The translations under genes were made by a program, and so were the position numbers. The notes beneath the pieces were generated by a model. That model worked only from the letters and a program-made list of their open reading frames with translations, had not been told where the DNA came from and searched no databases. From IMG/VR virus record IMGVR_UViG_2778261619_000004, positions 1 to 6,592 of that record: a stretch of DNA of 6,592 nucleotides. The stretch is one strand, 5' to 3'. This document shows positions 1 to 6,592 of the stretch, one piece after another; position 1 is the stretch's first letter; every line of letters starts with the position of its first letter. This stretch comes from a virus (Duplodnaviria > Heunggongvirae > Uroviricota > Caudoviricetes).

Positions 1-1283
1 GTTACCTGAACCACAAAACGGCGATGACGTCCCGCCTGCACATCCACTGTCGCCACAAGGAAATTAACGCCATCCGGCACACTGCGGGAAGGAACTGGCT
101 CTGCCCGCTGCTCAAGCAATTCACTTTTTCGTTGCTCCATGCTGGCGCGGGGAAGATAAGGTAATCCCCAGTCGGTATTGATAACCGTCTTGAGTGTCTC
201 TTCACTTCCGGTTGTCTCGTATTCCTGTTCTGCAGTAAGCAGTTTGTAAACGAGTTGCGAGAGTGTCTGATAAGCAGCTGCCGGACCCTCCATCCAGAAT
301 GACGCAATACGTGAACGCCGGGGATCACCATAACGACTGCCATCTGCATTGATGGATTCACCATCCCGTAGCCAGACCCCACGTCCGTTCAGCTCGCGTT
401 TTTGTTCAGGCAAAATCCGTCCTGAACAGGAAGGACACTGAATATAAGCCGCCTCACTTGCCAGCACAGGATCGGCAATATCACGGAAACCAGCAACCAC
501 ATCGCCGCAGGGCTGAAAATACTCACCACAGTGTGGACATGGCCAGTACCAGCGACGGCGATCGCCACGGTTATAGAGCGACAGGATCCCCGTGGTTGGT
601 GGAGCCTCATGCGGTGAAGTCCGTCGCCATTTCACATCCTTCACATCCCTGCCGGGGGAACTCTCCACAAGCGTCATACCACTGGACATAAATGTGGTGG
701 TACGTTTTGAGGCAAGAGAGAAGGCATCCCCCTCGCCATCAATATCTTCCGGAAAACGGTCATAATCCGTCAGCGCCACGCATTTATAATCTGATGAGGA
801 CATGATATTGACTGACGGCCAGCCGATTTTCAGGTAGTTGCCAGCAAGGAATGTTCTGTCATAAACGTTGTTGTCATTTTTGTTCGGACTCAGGCGACTG
901 ACCACTTCCGGGCTGACGCGAAACGTTCTGGCGAGTCGTTTTTTGGAGTGTTCGCGGGCTTTTTCCTCCGTCATCTGAATGATCAGCATATCCGCAGGAT
1001 CGCAAATCACGTTGTAAATCACCCAGCCGTCAATCAGGCCGATAGTCTTGCCGGTTCGTGCCGGGCCAACAAATATCACTGCGTCGTATTCACGCGAGGC
1101 CAGGCAGTTCATCGGCTCAATAACATACGGTGCCACCAGCGGATCCCACGGGACTGAGTTCCCTGCCCCCATGGGCACCCGCATATACTGAGCAACGGCA
1201 TCAGCAACCCGCATTCGTCTCGGTGCGCGAAGGATATAACCTGAATCGGTTCGTGCTGCCTTTGCGGTTTCCTGATTCAGCAT
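1..1283 (-). CDS. Terminase large subunit, lambda gpA family; N-terminal 427 codons, C-terminus lies beyond window start
   Basis: Hand translation of the minus strand from ATG at 1283-1281 is open through position 3 (absent from the ORF track because no stop lies in-window). Begins MLNQETAKAARTDSGYILRAP; has Walker A-like VGPARTGKT and a Cys cluster WPCPHCGEYFQPCGD...IQCPSCSG that parallels lambda gpA (ACPHCGEEQYLKFGD...LCEHNAC, from memory). SD AGGAGGAG lies 5 nt upstream; start overlaps the upstream stop as TAATG. Confidence 0.88.
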   Translation of the reverse strand, partial: MLNQETAKAARTDSGYILRAPRRMRVADAVAQYMRVPMGAGNSVPWDPLVAPYVIEPMNCLASREYDAVIFVGPARTGKTIGLIDGWVIYNVICDPADMLIIQMTEEKAREHSKKRLARTFRVSPEVVSRLSPNKNDNNVYDRTFLAGNYLKIGWPSVNIMSSSDYKCVALTDYDRFPEDIDGEGDAFSLASKRTTTFMSSGMTLVESSPGRDVKDVKWRRTSPHEAPPTTGILSLYNRGDRRRWYWPCPHCGEYFQPCGDVVAGFRDIADPVLASEAAYIQCPSCSGRILPEQKRELNGRGVWLRDGESINADGSRYGDPRRSRIASFWMEGPAAAYQTLSQLVYKLLTAEQEYETTGSEETLKTVINTDWGLPYLPRASMEQRKSELLEQRAEPVPSRSVPDGVNFLVATVDVQAGRHRRFVVQV

Positions 1284-1774
1284 TACTCCTCCTGCTGTAA
1301 TTCCTCCTCATCATCCGCACCTGCTTCGGTCACCCGCAGGGCTATCTGATCGCGCAGATCATCAATAATGGACTGAACACGGCTCACAGCGGCAGGCTGC
1401 AGACCACAGTCACGTTCCAGAATATCCGGTAATGTCTCCAGCACCTGCACGACCGCTTTTGCCCAGATGGCAAACTCCCGTCTGACATCACTGGCCGGAA
1501 TGAGTTGTGCCGTTTCCTGTTCGAACTTAAGACGCTCACGTTCAGACTGATACCAGGCTTTGCGTTCATGTGGATCCATTTCGCCCTCAGCAACCGGCGG
1601 TGGTAACCCCATAAATTCAGTCAGAATATCGGTCAACCGGTATAGCTTGAGTTTGTCATGTCCACCAGCGGGACGAATGTTTTTCAGTCTTGCCACGACA
1701 GTCTGGCGGTGCAGACCAGATAAAGCCGCCAGTTGATTAATATTCAGCACCAGGTTTTTCAATTCATGATCCAT
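1283..1774 (-). CDS. Terminase small subunit, Nu1-like (N-terminal helix-turn-helix DNA-binding domain)
   Basis: 163-aa ORF directly upstream of and overlapping the large terminase, with strong SD GGAGGA. N-terminus LNINQLAALSGLHRQTVVARLKNIRPAGGHDKLKLY follows the lambda Nu1 pattern (HTH, then GGG, then LY; lambda VNKKQLADIFGASIRTIQNW...GGGKGNEVLY). Acidic C-terminal tail. Sits about 175 bp downstream of the predicted cosN, as in lambda. Confidence 0.8.
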   Translation of the reverse strand: MDHELKNLVLNINQLAALSGLHRQTVVARLKNIRPAGGHDKLKLYRLTDILTEFMGLPPPVAEGEMDPHERKAWYQSERERLKFEQETAQLIPASDVRREFAIWAKAVVQVLETLPDILERDCGLQPAAVSRVQSIIDDLRDQIALRVTEAGADDEEELQQEE

Positions 1775-1805
1775 ATTTCCTCCGGAGAGCTTTAAACATG
1801 CATCG

Positions 1806-1866
1806 TGCGAACAACTTTAAGAAAACGCGTTCGATGTCGAACAAAAAACACTCAATTCGACATACA
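1806..1866 (-). promoter_or_regulatory. Putative cosB: small-terminase binding repeats and A-tracts between cosN and the terminase genes
   Basis: Inverted repeat ATGTCGAA (1834-1841) / TTCGACAT (1857-1864); near-palindrome GTTCGA-TG-TCGAAC (1829-1842); CGAACAA at 1808-1814 and 1838-1844; A-tracts at 1843-1849 and 1865-1874. The position matches lambda cosB (R sites plus IHF bend). Confidence 0.35.
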
Positions 1867-1948
1867 AAAAACAAACAACCATTAATAATCAATAAGATGT
1901 AAAGATGATGGTGGCCGATAAAAATGCAAAAACTAGCCTTTTTCCGCG

Positions 1949-1960
1949 ACGCTCCCGCCC
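1949..1960 (-). other. cosN, cohesive-end nicking site of the cos packaging signal; predicted 12-nt end GGGCGGGAGCGT (phage orientation)
   Basis: Reverse complement of 1931-1990 reads CGGGTCCTCCCGGTGGGGTGGCCTGCCACG-GGGCGGGAGCGT-CGCGGAAAAAGG. This is collinear with the lambda cos region as I recall it (ACGGGTCCTTTCCGGTGATCCGACAGGTTACG-GGGCGGCGACCT-CGCGGGTTTTCGC): 16 of 21 matches across the core, plus the conserved CGGGTCCT and CCGGTG blocks on the cosQ side. It lies between the lysis cassette and Nu1-like gene, as expected. Confidence 0.6.
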
Positions 1961-2160
1961 CGTGGCAGGCCACCCCACCGGGAGGACCCGTCAGCCTGGC
2001 AGCCATGAACGAGCGTCTGATACAGAACACAGAAATAAATCAGGCATCCACTGACGTCACACAGACGGTGCATTGCGTCGACAGGAGTAATGGCGTAAGC
2101 TGAACTCTTGGCTCTCTTGTGCCACCGGCGAATCTTCAGCGGATTATCCTTGGCCGGTTT

Positions 2161-2625
2161 TTATCTGAGGCATTGCTCACGAATGTATAGCTGTGCCCCT
2201 TCCAGTTGTTTTTGCATTATTATCAGCCGCTCTCTGAGGGTGAAATAATCCCGTTCAGCGGTGTCTGCCAGTCGGGGGGCGGCTGCATTACCCACGCCGG
2301 TGGCGGCGGTGGCTTCACGTCCGGTCTGACAGACTGCTCTGATGCGCAACCGACGACGACCAGCGGCAATATCATCACGCAGAGCATCATTTTCAGCTTT
2401 TGCATCAGCTAACTCCCTTGAGTATTTTTCATCCAGTGCAGCAACATCACGCTGGCGCTGCTGCATGTCAGTAATGGTGGCGTTCGCCTGGCTGAGTTTT
2501 TCCTTCGCTTTATCGCGCTGGTCTTTGTAGGAGATGGCGTTATCACGGTAATGATTAACAGCCAATGACAGGCAGACGATGATGCAGATAACCAGAGCGG
2601 AGATAATCGCGGTGACTCTGCTCAT
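2161..2625 (-). CDS. Rz: Rz i-spanin (inner-membrane spanin subunit)
   Basis: 154 aa, [34 protein letters not shown]..., near-identical over most of its length to lambda Rz as recalled ([34 protein letters not shown]...). N-terminal TM helix then coiled-coil periplasmic domain. Start overlaps the R stop (ATGA). Confidence 0.93.
2223..2405 (-). CDS. Rz1: Rz1 o-spanin lipoprotein, embedded out of frame within Rz
   Basis: 60 aa, [24 protein letters not shown]...[28 protein letters not shown], with lipobox LVVVGC and proline-rich mature region. Near-identical to lambda Rz1 ([20 protein letters not shown]...[29 protein letters not shown], from memory). Confidence 0.9.
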
Positions 2626-3098
2626 ACCTCAATCTCTCTGACCGTTCCGCCTGCTTCTTTGAATTTTGCAATCAGGCTGTCAACTTTATGCTCGAACTGA
2701 CCATAACCAGCGCCCGGTAGTGAAGCCCAGATATTGCTGCAACGGTCAATTGCCTGACGAATATCACCGCGATCAATCATCGGTAAAGCGCCACGCTCTT
2801 TAATCTGCTGCAGTGCAACAGCGTCCTGGCTTTTCGGAGAGAAGTCTTTCAGGCCAAGCTGCTTGCGGTAGGCATCCCACCAACGGGAAAGAAGCTGGTA
2901 ACGTCCAGCTGCGGTTGATTTAAGTTGCGGGTTTAGCGTAACAAGTTTGCGAGGATGATCGGAGTAATCTGTGAACAGCTCACCACCTACAATAACGTCG
3001 TAGCCGTGATTGCGGGTTGGCTGTCGCCCGTTATCCGTTCCTTCTGACCACGCCAACATATCGAGGAAAGCTTTACGCTGGGAATTTAGTACCTGCAT
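2622..3098 (-). CDS. R: Endolysin, lambda R-type lytic transglycosylase
   Basis: 158 aa, [57 protein letters not shown]..., roughly 95% identical by eye to lambda R including the catalytic-Glu motif AWSEGT. SD AAGGAG 6 nt upstream; only 3 nt after the holin stop. Confidence 0.95.
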
Positions 3099-3101
3099 AA
3101 A

Positions 3102-3428
3102 TTACTCCTTAGAGCCACCAAACTTATTACCGATTACTCTCATTGCAGCCCCACGAATAGCATCGACACCGATCAGCCCCACCCCACCACCAATGGCAAC
3201 AGAAAGCGATTTAGGCCATCCGACATACTCAAGAGCGGATGCAAAAGTCAGCGTCAGAGCGCCACAGAGTAGAATTTCGAGTGTTTTTCGCTTCCAGCCA
3301 CCACCACCGCCAAAATAGGCAATGCGCAAACCAGCCATAACAATCGACATAATCACTGCGCCCAGCGGTGTGTCTCCACGCCACCAGCTCTGGACCAACT
3401 CCAGCCAAGTATTTGGGTTATGAGGCAT
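3102..3428 (-). CDS. Holin, class I (three TM), distant lambda S relative
   Basis: 108 aa directly upstream of R. Three hydrophobic segments (GAVIMSIVMAGLRIAYF, TLEILLCGALTLTFASAL, SLSVAIGGGVGLIGVDAI) and a charged C-terminal tail. The block LGAVIMSIVMAGLRIAYFGGGGG aligns with lambda S IGAILAFAMAYLRGRYNGG. An in-frame TAA two codons upstream of the ATG rules out a longer N-terminus; no Met-Lys-Met dual-start motif. Confidence 0.8.
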   Translation of the reverse strand: MPHNPNTWLELVQSWWRGDTPLGAVIMSIVMAGLRIAYFGGGGGWKRKTLEILLCGALTLTFASALEYVGWPKSLSVAIGGGVGLIGVDAIRGAAMRVIGNKFGGSKE

Positions 3429-3580
3429 TTGTAGTTATCTCTCACCTCGCCGATACAAGAGGTGCAAATTGAGGGAGTACCACGAACCGCAAATCAGAAG
3501 CGGAAACGTAAAAGAAGCCGAGCCAATGGATAAGAGCTAGATAGACCAAGCCCAACGAATACCAAAGCCCAGAAACGACA

Positions 3581-3602
3581 AAACCCGCTCGACGGCGGGT
3601 TT
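3581..3602. terminator. Candidate intrinsic terminator hairpin (8-bp stem AAACCCGC/GCGGGTTT, 6-nt loop)
   Basis: Arms 3581-3588 and 3595-3602 are perfectly complementary. On the minus strand the stem is followed by UGUCGUUUCU (a tR'-like terminator ahead of the holin); on the plus strand only the UUU of the stem is followed by AAGCUG. The A/U-flanked stem could work in either direction. Confidence 0.4.
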
Positions 3603-3718
3603 AAGCTGTGTGGCGAAGTAACCACTCTTAACAGAGTACTGTATTTTTTGCGTACGCATTAGTATTTTTTGAAGTATTATCAACACCAATTGTTCAAAAC
3701 CATTAAAAGGATGTTGTT

Positions 3719-4753
3719 ATGACTGCATCAGCGACCCCCACTAATATCACTCATAAGTTTATTGTTCACATTATGAACAAGGAACAACAGGGGTTAGCCA
3801 CCATTATTCCTTGTCCTTCAGAAAAACCTGTTCAGCAAGCATCAAAAGACCTCTCTAACGCACTTACTGAAAGGTACTCTGGGAGAGCAGGTAAAGGATA
3901 TGGGAAATTTGAAGATGACCGCGATAGTTACCCTATGGGTAATATCGTTGATGATTATTTCGTAAATAAAACACATAGTTTTTATGATACTAGTATCCGA
4001 ATGATCAATCATTTAAAAGCCAGAGCCGATGATGAATCAATGTCTACTGGTGGTTATGTAATAATTGCCCATAATGAGGTAAATGGAAATCATTATTTGA
4101 TGGTTGCAATCCTAACATCAGCAGTTGGCTCTTCAGTCCACGATTTTGAAATTCAAGAAAGTGAATATCTAGACATTGCTAAACTTCGAGTAGCGGGACG
4201 AATTGACTTAACTGGGCGCCAGAATGGCAAAGAGAGATATATTAGCTTTCTAAAGGGGCAAAATTCAGTAGCAGGTTATTTCAAAAAGTTTTTAGGTTGC
4301 AACGATATTCTAATTGCCAAACAAGAAACAACAAAATTACGGAATGCACTTTTAGAATTTGCTACTGAAAGAGGTTTTGAACCAGAGGCACGTGAAGAGT
4401 TCCTAAATAAGGCTCATGAAAAATTAAAAAATTTAAATCGTTCTGGTGAAACTTTCGACACTCAAATTTTTGCAAACGAGATATGGCCAACTGCTCCTGA
4501 GTTGTTAGTTGAAAAGTTAACCAATGACGATCTGGAGTTCTCTGATGGGTTCGTGCCTGATGGCAACGTTATACGTGGGCTTGTTAGTTTCAAAGGAAAG
4601 TCCAAACATTGGTCTCTGAAATTCGAGCGTGCGGCCTTGCATGATGGCAGCGTTCTTTATGATTCAGAAAACGATAAATTGATACTTACCGAGATTCCGG
4701 ATACGCTAAGATCAGAGATTTTATCAGAATTAGGTGAAGAGGATGAGCAGTAA
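3719..4753 (+). CDS. NdpA/YejK-like nucleoid-associated protein homolog (NA37 family), divergent, prophage-encoded
   Basis: 344-aa ORF with ATG start and AAAAGG SD. Collinear similarity to E. coli YejK recalled from memory: [24 protein letters not shown] vs [41 protein letters not shown] vs [27 protein letters not shown] vs TRYLTFLKGR; KFLGC vs DFLGA; [13 protein letters not shown] vs TIKGTPPNLRDQL. AT-rich codon usage unlike the flanking phage genes. Confidence 0.8.
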   Translation: [344 protein letters not shown]

Positions 4754-5921
4754 CAATCAGAGAACCTTCAAAGACTTAGTGACTATTTACAAGGCCGCTA
4801 CATTTGCAGGTACCCTATCTGAAGCATCACTCATTCTTTCAAACGAGGAGCTCTGTGACATCATCAACGATATCACAGAGAATCCCCATGATTTTGGCAT
4901 CACCCTTGAATCTGGCAACATTGAGTTAGGCCAAACTATAACCTTACATATAACCCCCCCCAAATTACGATTGGGGCAGCTACATTTCTCTTTTAATGAG
5001 TATTTAAAAAATCCTAAAAATAGGATAAAGGAAGCCAGTAACTTCTTTATAATCGAACTTAATTATCACAACAGGGATAAAAAGTCGCCTGCTATTATAT
5101 CCAAGTACAGAGATGTTTTGAGCTTAATTACTTTATTCAAAGATTGTTCTGCTTATTTAGATGAAACAAATTTTGAATTGGTATTCGTCGAATCCAACGT
5201 ACTAAAAATTCCAGTAAATTATTCTAGCGATGATCTTATGAATGTTAATGGAGATCTGATTCATAATTTGATCGCAAACTTTGCAGAAGATACGCATAAA
5301 GATCAAAAACTTACTATTTTAGCAAGTAGTATAAAATCATCATGTGAATCTAAAACTAAAGAAACCTCTTTTTCCTTCATGTTAAGGGATTTAGGACAAC
5401 TTTATGAAAGTTATCAAAAAGGATACAAAGTATTCGTTTCTGGTTTTTCTTACGAGAAAATACTGGATCAGTTACGAGTAGCCAAAATAGAAGAGATGGG
5501 GAAAATACATAAAGTATTCAGTGACATACAAAATCAGATATTAGGTATCCCCGTCGCAACAATTATCGTTGCGACTCAAATGAAGCAGGCTAATGGTTGG
5601 GATAGTCAAGCATTAATAAACACAGCTGTAGTGTTGGGTGCATTGTTCTTCACTATTATGATTCTATTTGTTCTATTTAATCAATGGCAAACTTTAACAG
5701 CAATAAATGATGAGTTAAATCATAAAAAACAACAAGCAGAATATAACTTCAAGGCTATTTACGAAGATATAAAGGATACATTTGATAGTTTAACCACAAG
5801 ATTGCTTGTTCAGAAAATTGTTTTTGCCTCATTAGGAATTATAGTTTTATGTGGCTTATATCTTACATTTAGATTCTACTTTTTACTTACGCCTTATGCT
5901 ATTACATATTTATTTAGCTGA
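4743..5921 (+). CDS. Membrane protein of unknown function: about 265-aa soluble N-terminal domain plus 2-3 C-terminal TM helices; candidate effector partner of the NA37 protein
   Basis: The ORF track gives 4734-5921 from GTG. An ATG at 4743, 5 nt after AGGTGA, is the more likely start; it overlaps the upstream gene stop (TAA 4751-4753) by 11 nt. Hydrophobic segments INTAVVLGALFFTIMILFVLF and IVFASLGIIVLCGLYLTF (plus FYFLLTPYAITYLF) are separated by a charged loop. I recognise no catalytic motif. Very AT-rich. Confidence 0.8.
   Translation: MSSNNQRTFKDLVTIYKAATFAGTLSEASLILSNEELCDIINDITENPHDFGITLESGNIELGQTITLHITPPKLRLGQLHFSFNEYLKNPKNRIKEASNFFIIELNYHNRDKKSPAIISKYRDVLSLITLFKDCSAYLDETNFELVFVESNVLKIPVNYSSDDLMNVNGDLIHNLIANFAEDTHKDQKLTILASSIKSSCESKTKETSFSFMLRDLGQLYESYQKGYKVFVSGFSYEKILDQLRVAKIEEMGKIHKVFSDIQNQILGIPVATIIVATQMKQANGWDSQALINTAVVLGALFFTIMILFVLFNQWQTLTAINDELNHKKQQAEYNFKAIYEDIKDTFDSLTTRLLVQKIVFASLGIIVLCGLYLTFRFYFLLTPYAITYLFS
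4954..4961 (+). repeat. Homopolymeric C8 tract inside the membrane-protein CDS (codons Thr-Pro-Pro)
   Basis: Eight consecutive C at 4954-4961 in an otherwise AT-rich gene. By hand translation, a +1 or -1 slip gives a stop within about 20 codons. Confidence 0.9.
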
Positions 5922-5938
5922 CGGCCAATATGGCCGTC
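5920..5938. terminator. Stem-loop between the convergent stops of the cassette and Q (GACGGCC-AATAT-GGCCGTC); possible terminator or insertion-junction remnant
   Basis: Perfect 7-bp GC-rich inverted repeat with 5-nt loop. It starts inside the cassette stop codon (TGA 5919-5921) and ends 8 nt before the Q stop (5946-5948). Plus-strand tail UAAUAAAUU is only moderately U-rich; minus-strand tail is A-rich. Confidence 0.35.
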
Positions 5939-5945
5939 TAATAAA

Positions 5946-6293
5946 TTACCCATGTATTATATATATAACTGCATCAATAAATCCCAATGCAGCTTGCAAC
6001 TTTTTTCTTATAGTCCCATCAGAGCATTTTCTCTTCTTCGCAATAGTGCGTAATGAGATACCGATAACAAAGTGAGCAATTATCAGCTCATACTCTTCCG
6101 GCTTATATTTACGCAACCTAGCCACACAACTATCTATCATGATGCCTTCATCATCATCACACTGGAGACGTGACTTTTTACCGTGTGGTAAAAGTCCCTT
6201 GAAACCAGCCGCTATCGGCTGCCAGTCCACACCACTATTTTCTGCTGCAGCCCATGCTCCCCAGCGGTCCAATACTTCATACATATCACGCAT
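5946..6293 (-). CDS. Late-gene antitermination protein Q (QuuD / phage 82-like small Q family)
   Basis: 115 aa from ATG at 6293-6291 (the ORF track starts one codon earlier at TTG). MRDMYEVLDRWGAWAAAENSGVDWQPIAAGFKGL...RLQCDDDEG resembles E. coli DLP12 QuuD as recalled (MRDIQMVLERWGAWAAN...SSIAAGFKGL...RPQCCDDD). SD GGAG upstream. Positioned upstream of the lysis cassette as in lambdoid phages. Confidence 0.75.
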   Translation of the reverse strand: MRDMYEVLDRWGAWAAAENSGVDWQPIAAGFKGLLPHGKKSRLQCDDDEGIMIDSCVARLRKYKPEEYELIIAHFVIGISLRTIAKKRKCSDGTIRKKLQAALGFIDAVIYIIHG

Positions 6294-6310
6294 CAACTTT
6301 CTCCACCAAA

Positions 6311-6592
6311 TCAGGCCAGCACGCCAATTGCCAGCGCACGATCAATAAAACGAAATATCAGCTCCAACTGGGAGCCATACTTCTCTTCAAATGCCACGGT
6401 ATCCGCATGCAGCTCGTCGTGATGCTTTCTGCACAAAGGCAACACAAAGAGGTCATGCGCTTTTGTACCCATTCCCCCCTGACCGTGGCCTATCAGGTGG
6501 TGGGGATCATCAGCAGGCTTTCCACAACATGCACACGGCTGTGTCTTAACCCAGCGCGTGTACTTTTCATTAACCCAGCGGCGACGTTTTGG
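6311..6592 (-). CDS. Cys/His-rich nin-region protein, possibly YbcO-like putative nuclease; C-terminal 93 codons, N-terminus outside window
   Basis: Minus-strand frame open from the window edge to TGA at 6313-6311, 17 bp upstream of Q. Translation ...QPCACCGKPADDPHHLIGHGQGGMGTKAHDLFVLPLCRKHHDELH... has a CxxC...HH...C..HH..H cluster. The block HLIGHGQGGMGTKAHDL...CRKHHDEL loosely parallels my recollection of DLP12 YbcO (HIRLTGLCGTGTKPPDL...CSACHDEI). Confidence 0.5.
   Translation of the reverse strand, partial: PKRRRWVNEKYTRWVKTQPCACCGKPADDPHHLIGHGQGGMGTKAHDLFVLPLCRKHHDELHADTVAFEEKYGSQLELIFRFIDRALAIGVLA

Follow-up and report, generated by a model that had tools for sequence, protein, structure and literature searches.

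The window analysed here is a stretch of 6,592 nucleotides (nt) from a virus of the Caudoviricetes (IMG/VR record IMGVR_UViG_2778261619_000004, positions 1 to 6,592). It contains a run of eight cytosines (C8) inside the gene of a putative membrane effector, which together with the preceding gene for an NA37/YejK-like nucleoid-associated protein resembles a type II PANGU anti-phage pair; the two genes are hereafter called the cassette. Copies of the run with six, seven or nine cytosines, which put the effector gene out of frame, were found in public sequence data. The run is probably an accidental slippage hotspot of a PANGU-like effector and not an evolved switch.

The C8 run and the predicted frameshift products

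The features of the effector gene that bear on the run are the following, with coordinates of the window and lengths in amino acids (aa).

4743 (ATG; alternative GTG at 4734)-5921, + strand: pag2B-like effector gene of the open reading frame (ORF) list, encoding 392 aa with a soluble domain at the N terminus and membrane helices at the C terminus
4954-4961, + strand: C8 homopolymer CCCCCCCC, in the codons ACC CCC CCC for T71, P72 and P73 of the effector
4994-4996, + strand: TAA stop for the +1 (C9) and -2 (C6) alleles, whose 84-aa and 83-aa products were found exactly in public data
5005-5007, + strand: TAA stop for the -1 (C7) alleles, whose 87-aa products P0123 and P0127 were found exactly in public data
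5604-5894, + strand: two strongly hydrophobic helices (residues ~288-316 and ~350-384) from a Kyte-Doolittle scan, lost in all frameshift alleles

The initial annotation had placed the C8 run in the membrane-protein gene; its coordinates were confirmed exactly, and the run lies in frame. The codons across the run are ACC CCC CCC AAA (T71-P72-P73-K74, numbered from the ATG at 4743, which is also the start annotated by PGAP in identical loci of complete genomes). The run is the only homopolymer of 7 nt or more in the window, all others being 6 nt or shorter. The cassette has a GC content of 30-38 %, and C accounts for 17 % of the bases in the 2.2 kb from 3719 to 5921. Dinucleotide shuffles of the window gave an expectation of 0.11 C8/G8 runs, with one or more in 15 of 200 shuffles, and a C/G run of at least 8 nt appeared in 1.7 % of trials (p ~0.017) in which the synonymous codons of the gene were resampled from the codon usage of the cassette. 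Of the 18 proline codons of the cassette only five are CCC, and two of these five are inside the run. The C8 run is unusual for the effector gene, yet a few such runs per genome are expected by chance.

In the AF2 model of the effector, residues T71-K74 were placed in a loop between the strands 65-70 and 79-81. A scan of 3400-6000 for promoter and terminator consensus sequences gave fewer promoter-like sites than in shuffled sequence, leaving a regulatory role of the run unsupported. The antisense ORF at 4787-4963 (- strand, 58 aa), which begins with a TTG immediately next to the run's G8 complement, was dismissed as a mechanical ORF without homology or other support.

It had also been claimed that the change of a single C would lead to a stop within about 20 codons and before the membrane anchor. 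This held for both directions, the predicted stop following 11 codons after the gain and 14 codons after the loss of one C. The C9 allele is predicted to read TPP, then QITIGAATFLF and then a stop (TPPQITIGAATFLF), and the C7 allele TPP, then NYDWGSYISLLMSI and then a stop (TPPNYDWGSYISLLMSI). Both truncations delete residues 74-392, including the hydrophobic helices. Internal restarts at TTG 4971 (316-aa ORF) and TTG 5118 (267-aa ORF) in the off alleles, as the out-of-frame versions are called here, were rejected as leftovers of gene calling, having no visible Shine-Dalgarno sequence.

Tract length in public sequence data

The cassette was present at 99 % identity or more in 16 of 5426 RefSeq complete Escherichia coli genomes, and all 16 copies were in frame and without an insertion or deletion (indel). 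An 86-nt probe across the tract matched 11 of the 16 genomes identically and five with one mismatch; in the two of these five that were read, the mismatch was the synonymous change CCC to CCA (ACC CCC CCA AAA, or C7A). The natural alleles comprised C6, C7, C8, C9 and C8A4, and the interrupted in-frame forms C7A and CTC6 (CTC6 in L026). Pattern scans that allowed tracts of 5-12 bases returned 8-base tracts only, from five IMG/VR loci (all C8) and one locus of the JGI metagenomes (C7A), and no length variants.

A larger protein collection contained P0020, a C-terminal effector fragment of 267 aa with 99 % identity, whose cluster has 30 members, in part on E. coli chromosomes. At the P0020 loci the gene was split and the tract was C9, C7 or C6. 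The predicted products of the tract alleles, which leave downstream ORFs of 267 and 316 aa, were then searched in this collection as exact look-ups.

C8 or an interrupted form (in frame), 392 aa: 373, 257 and 174 contigs, and further minor alleles
C9, 84 aa: P0135 (3 contigs, including KHI42620.1), P0136 (2 contigs) and P0137 (1 contig)
C7, 87 aa: P0123 (3 contigs) and P0127 (5 contigs, including three NCBI TPA accessions)
C6, 83 aa: P0124 (1 contig) and P0154 (1 contig)

No exact match in the collection was obtained for the C10 product (88 aa), nor, in two allele backgrounds, for the in-frame C5 (391 aa) and C11 (393 aa) products. The leftover ORFs of 267 and 316 aa had exact matches too. Altogether ~25 contigs were out of frame and ~850 in frame, corresponding to ~3 % off and ~97 % on. 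The NA37 gene, which has no long run, showed almost no truncated forms among ~960 contigs.

The tract explains the annotation of ~3 % of the database copies as a fragment of 84 or 87 aa followed by another of 267 or 316 aa. It is a position prone to assembly error, and calls of the presence or absence of PANGU-like systems should check it. Many NCBI drafts also break inside the effector gene, giving 'partial' proteins of 68-263 aa (P0143-P0152), and the contigs L018 and L019 start at window positions 5082 and 5100, within 20 nt of each other. These breaks may come from a diverged second copy or from poor coverage of AT-rich DNA.

Haplotypes and inheritance of the off alleles

All retrieved loci were aligned to window positions 2601-6400, and every indel and single-nucleotide polymorphism (SNP) was listed. 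The tract was the sole indel over 0.7-3.8 kb in the C9 loci L013, L017/L041, L039, L042, L043 and L044 and in the C7 loci L030, L031, L032, L033, L035, L036, L037 and L038. Likewise, L072 (C6) and L045 (C8A4) had no other indel over 0.7-3.8 kb. These clean loci hold several A6 and T6 runs, which were free of indels. The earlier view of the tract as a mutational hotspot is thus borne out by the occurrence of C9, C7 and C6 on several haplotypes, with no other indel in the surrounding 3-4 kb of the clean assemblies.

The strongest C7 case was L030, a 150-kb isolate contig found in three samples, and the strongest C9 cases were the isolate contigs L013 (70 kb) and L039 (84 kb), together with L017, found in four samples. 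The recovery of L030 in three samples and of L017 in four argues for heritable alleles. C6 and C7 were also found on one haplotype in sequencing runs with neighbouring numbers (SRR26800228 and SRR26800234, respectively), a pair that could represent either true variation within a study or platform bias.

Off alleles were found on at least six SNP haplotypes. C9 occurred in the backgrounds A (5817G only), B (3734C, 5817G) and C (4117T, 4754A, 5465A, 5664A, 5817G, 5891A), and C7 in the backgrounds C, C' (C plus 4757C), D (3820G) and E (3977T) and in the haplotype of the window itself. At least two isolate lineages with off alleles are firmly established, and up to ~8 independent off events are plausible.

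Some of the off alleles are surrounded by signs of prophage decay. A DUF968 gene, located beyond window position 6311, is frameshifted in the C9 alleles of background A (L013, L017, L039) and in their C8 relative L008. Since L008 has the same DUF968 frameshift, the C9 alleles of background A appear to go back to one inherited event in an already decaying prophage. In L016/L040, C9 is accompanied by a 1-nt deletion that frameshifts the NA37 gene (window-equivalent position 3881).

Conservation of the run among homologues

In an alignment of 35 sequences of the effector family, P73 was invariant, residue 72 was P, Q, H, R, S, T or D, and residue 71 varied. The codons at the site were as follows.

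21 homologues from other genera: mixed codons, e.g. ACA CCA CCA, ACG CCA CCA or GAT CCT, the site being free of C/G runs of at least 6 nt
86 % clade: AGC CCA CCG
Salmonella: GCC CCA CCA
Klebsiella phage Kp4865-4: GCC CCA CCA
80 % clade (L069, L070; position 1712): GCC CCC CCC (C8)

Mixed proline codons were found in 24 of 25 homologue lineages, and 20 of the 21 genes from other genera had no C/G run of 6 nt or more elsewhere in the gene. The flanks of the C8 run in the 80 % clade resemble those of the Salmonella clade, which has mixed codons, suggesting that C8 arose twice or came by short conversion. Either selection or a mutation bias that homogenises near-runs could lie behind it. The comparison of the tract across homologous loci, which the initial annotation had proposed as a check, spoke on both sides: tract length is not invariant, but outside two clades the homologues encode Pro-Pro or x-Pro with mixed codons.

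Homologues from other genera have runs of adenines, A9 in L046 (position 3482) and A8 in L048, L049 and L050 (~3461-3464) and in L063 (2018), in a lysine-rich segment between the membrane helices. These are a different potential site of slippage, or of transcriptional slippage, in the effector family.

Likeness of the gene pair to PANGU and DS-1 defence systems

The partner of the effector gene lies directly upstream.

3719-4753, + strand: NA37/YejK-like nucleoid-associated protein gene (pag2A-like sensor), Pfam PF04245 at 8e-69, PHROG 3767

Type II PANGU consists of a nucleoid protein, Pag2A, and a transmembrane effector, Pag2B, which has an acidic N-terminal 'DNA-mimic' domain that binds Pag2A (dissociation constant, KD, 19 nM) and a C-terminal membrane domain (bioRxiv 10.64898/2026.04.06.716658). 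Both genes of PANGU-Ecu were needed against T4, with abortive infection as the phenotype; the nucleoid protein departs from the nucleoid once the phage degrades the host DNA, and neither the system nor the single genes were reported to be toxic (same preprint). The DS-1 system originates from DefensePredictor, and the YejK domain is among the domains newly validated in defence (PMC13092281).

The two genes of the window share with type II PANGU the organisation as a two-gene operon (gap of less than 40 bp there, an 11-nt overlap here), the YejK/NA37-like gene (here PF04245) and a partner with a soluble N-terminal domain and a C-terminal transmembrane domain. By this architecture, the pair is filed as type II PANGU-like rather than as a proven member. 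The assumption of the initial annotation that the membrane protein is a putative effector fits this likeness, both genes being needed in the published system. The proteins also match both DS-1 models (NF053868/NF053869), the NA37 protein with DS1_1_antiphage, named 'nucleoid-associated anti-phage protein', at 2.8e-15 and 56.2 bits (cutoff 330) and the effector with DS1_2_antiphage at 1.6e-19 and 70.3 bits (cutoff 315). Because both scores are far under the curated equivalog cutoffs, the pair is a remote homologue and not an equivalog of DS-1. The NCBIfam YejK model was likewise matched by the NA37 protein below its cutoff (2.9e-48). PADLOC v2 matched neither protein of the cassette, and no match was found among the PLSDB plasmids. 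The PANGU and DS-1 papers mention neither a prophage location between Q and S nor a homopolymer.

The effector belongs to PHROG 5023 (unknown function) at 6e-80 and matches no Pfam family; 369 homologues of ~390-400 aa were found, from Enterobacterales and Betaproteobacteria. Its AF2 model, built with 35 homologues, had a mean pLDDT of 78.7 and showed an alpha/beta N-terminal domain followed by long helices (217-279, 288-335 and 340-382). A Foldseek search of the model against the PDB returned nothing significant (best E 0.35). Residues 1-262 are only mildly acidic (isoelectric point, pI, 5.7; 35 acidic and 29 basic residues), and residues 1-76 have a pI of 4.7.

Slippage rates and the proposed explanation

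Mismatch repair reportedly reduces indel formation about a hundredfold, after work by Lee et al. in 2012. Four runs of 8 G.C in the leuP/Q/V/T genes of E. coli acquired 95 indels in ~250,000 generations of lines deficient in mismatch repair, i.e. ~1e-4 indels per run per generation, with a rate exponential in run length; eight G.C is the extreme of the run-length distribution of E. coli (PMC8510543). These runs are of the same species, length and base as the one studied here, but they are in tRNA genes, which are structurally constrained, and their rates come from repair-deficient laboratory lines. Taken together, the figures imply a wild-type slippage rate of approximately 1e-6 to 1e-7 per generation, under that of classical phase variation, for which more than ~1e-5 is taken. 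Such a rate could bring neutral off alleles to a few per cent within the age of E. coli clones, so that no selection for switching would be needed.

In the explanation considered probable, C8 would be a by-product of codon choice for Thr-Pro-Pro (ACC-CCC-CCC) in a loop within the effector's N-terminal domain, and the cassette a prophage-borne abortive-infection pair that is type II PANGU-like and distantly DS-1-like. Slipped-strand mispairing at the run during replication would produce +1 or -1 and, rarely, -2 changes. The resulting frame shift, with its stop 11-14 codons on, would cost the protein its entire membrane domain and the larger part of its partner-binding domain, leaving the nucleoid protein without its effector. 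The published system depends on both genes, so the frameshift should abolish defence. The off alleles would be mostly neutral or slightly deleterious losses, revertible in principle.

Several observations weigh against this explanation or against the extent of slippage it assumes. Background C/C' holds C6, C7, C8 and C9 versions, and haplotype C both expands and contracts, as a true switch would. The C8 run of the 80 % clade could reflect selection for the run instead of accident. The off alleles may be leaky: in C9, a ribosomal +1 slip at CCC-C may restore the exact T-P-P-K, as may a -1 slip on C-CCC-CCA in the case of C7, and in E. coli as much as 1 % of +1 frameshifting can occur at CCC-C (PMC4519876). 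Finally, some loci with off alleles are suspect, namely L015 (C6; three extra indels, of which two fall in T6 runs), L034 (C7; five extra deletions), L071 (C6; two extra indels), and L014 (C7) and L016/L040 (C9), with one extra deletion each in a GGG run. The count of independent slippage events is uncertain, because these loci look error-prone and most Logan/ENA contigs could stem from any sequencing platform.

Alternative explanations

The initial annotation had proposed a reversible ON/OFF switch. The part of this proposal that stood is that the run is a slippage hotspot and that off alleles exist; the switch itself fits poorly with a tract that is ~97 % in frame, interrupted in 5 of the 16 complete genomes and not found as C5 or C11. 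A true contingency locus, in which selection would favour a mixture of lysogens with a costly abortive-infection effector armed and others with it disarmed or at low expression, interchangeable by reversible slippage, is therefore considered unlikely. It would account for the C6-C9 polymorphism on several backgrounds, with +1 and -1 changes both present in haplotype C, and for the use of CCC, otherwise a minority proline codon in the cassette. The presence of C8 in two clades ~20 % apart in protein, preceded by ACC in one and GCC in the other and with different flanks, is compatible with convergent gain. Slippage at the rate of mismatch repair-deficient E. coli would be within the phase-variation range, and there is a precedent in the homopolymer phase variation of the defence gene brxX/pglX of BREX (PMC6326788).

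Comparison with such systems shows where the likeness ends. Simple sequence repeat contingency loci of Neisseria, Haemophilus, Campylobacter and Bordetella (poly-G/C; e.g. the homopolymeric tracts of B. pertussis, PMC1891110) share with the present run an in-ORF homopolymer, truncation by +1 and -1 changes and a polymorphic length, although some of the length variants here are probably sequencing errors. The tract here, however, is at the short end (8 nt) in a host with active mismatch repair, is poorly conserved in orthologues and is often interrupted synonymously, which is evidently tolerated. Nor are both states common: the off state makes up ~3 % of the copies rather than a large fraction, and was found in none of the 16 complete genomes. 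In brxX/pglX and in phase-variable restriction-modification genes, homopolymer slippage inactivates defence and gives mixed armed and unarmed populations (PMC6326788), whereas the gene studied here would encode an abortive-infection effector, not a methyltransferase. The lack of +3 and -3 alleles in the exact look-ups also speaks against selected switching, as does the lack of any run at the site in most homologues. The second frameshift in the NA37 gene of L016/L040 and the broken DUF968 gene of the main C9 lineage fit decay and not switching, the rate expected in repair-proficient E. coli is far too low for classical phase variation, and the lack of toxicity in the PANGU preprint argues against a costly effector.

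A more elaborate form, in which a true phase switch was gained independently in the two clades and its off states are leaky through slippage of tRNAPro, yielding graded armed and unarmed lysogens, especially in mutators, is rated as quite improbable. For E. coli, a true switch would be one of the few examples of phase variation through a simple repeat, and it would be the first for an abortive-infection effector of this type, linking mutator status to heterogeneity in phage defence.

It is very unlikely that the tract is stable in cells and that the C6, C7 and C9 entries of the databases are all homopolymer errors of sequencing or assembly. Such errors would explain the extra indels of L015, L034 and L071, which are mostly at homopolymers, and the single GGG-run deletions of L014 and L016. 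They would also agree with the pair of C6 and C7 on one haplotype from adjacent runs, where the bias of one platform is possible, with the short length of many Logan contigs and with the absence of frameshifts from the RefSeq complete genomes. However, the insertion in C9 is in an unusual direction for a long-read homopolymer error, and the isolate assemblies L013, L039 and L030 have no other indel in 3.8 kb in spite of their A6 and T6 runs. C7 was also found in the metagenome contigs L035, L036 and L038, which are short-read assemblies of the MEGAHIT type. Repeated recovery of the same alleles (L030 in three samples and with three NCBI TPA protein accessions, L017 in four samples) is not expected of errors, and the DUF968 frameshift common to the C9 lineage and its C8 relative points to a clonal, inherited allele.

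Translational control, by an EF-P-dependent pause at Pro-Pro or by programmed frameshifting that would give a short N-terminal product beside the full-length protein, is hardly credible: the run does encode Pro-Pro, CCC-C is among the motifs on which tRNAPro is known to slip by +1 (PMC4519876) and the +1 frame ends after 11 codons in a defined 84-aa product, but homologues keep x-Pro with non-slippery codons and thus have no conserved recoding signal, neither a stimulatory structure nor a conserved peptide in the +1 frame was seen, slippage at CCC-C does not exceed 1 % unless programmed, and synonymous interruption of the run is common.

Prophage setting of the cassette

The genes flanking the cassette are encoded on the opposite strand.

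5946-6296, - strand: phage antiterminator Q gene, Pfam PF06530 at 1e-44
3102-3428, - strand: lambda-family holin S gene, Pfam PF05106 at 6e-25

In the annotation of an identical locus, lysozyme and Rz/Rz1 genes follow further left of the holin gene (- strand), and then a gene for a DUF1441 protein. From this gene order and its composition, the cassette is a low-GC insert of two genes that separates Q from the lysis genes of a lambdoid prophage. It lies within the interval 3430-5945, on the + strand, antisense to phage late transcription, with 24 nt between its last stop codon and the stop codon of Q. A Q-adjacent cassette is also found in Klebsiella phage Kp4865-4 (L002), in Salmonella (L068) and in the 86 % clade (L067), there beside a different holin family, and it appears to be Q, not the lysis genes, that the insert accompanies.

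The region 3500-3683 is conserved in ~2500 of 5426 E. coli genomes and in many lambdoid phages, and contains a GC hairpin with a T-rich tail at 3602-3581 (- strand). This hairpin may be a tR'-type terminator upstream of S. If pR' adjoins Q, the late transcript would cross the whole cassette antisense before reaching the hairpin. Further left, a Rz1-like lipoprotein ORF (2223-2405, - strand) is nested out of frame in a Rz-like gene (2161-2625, - strand), as in lambda.

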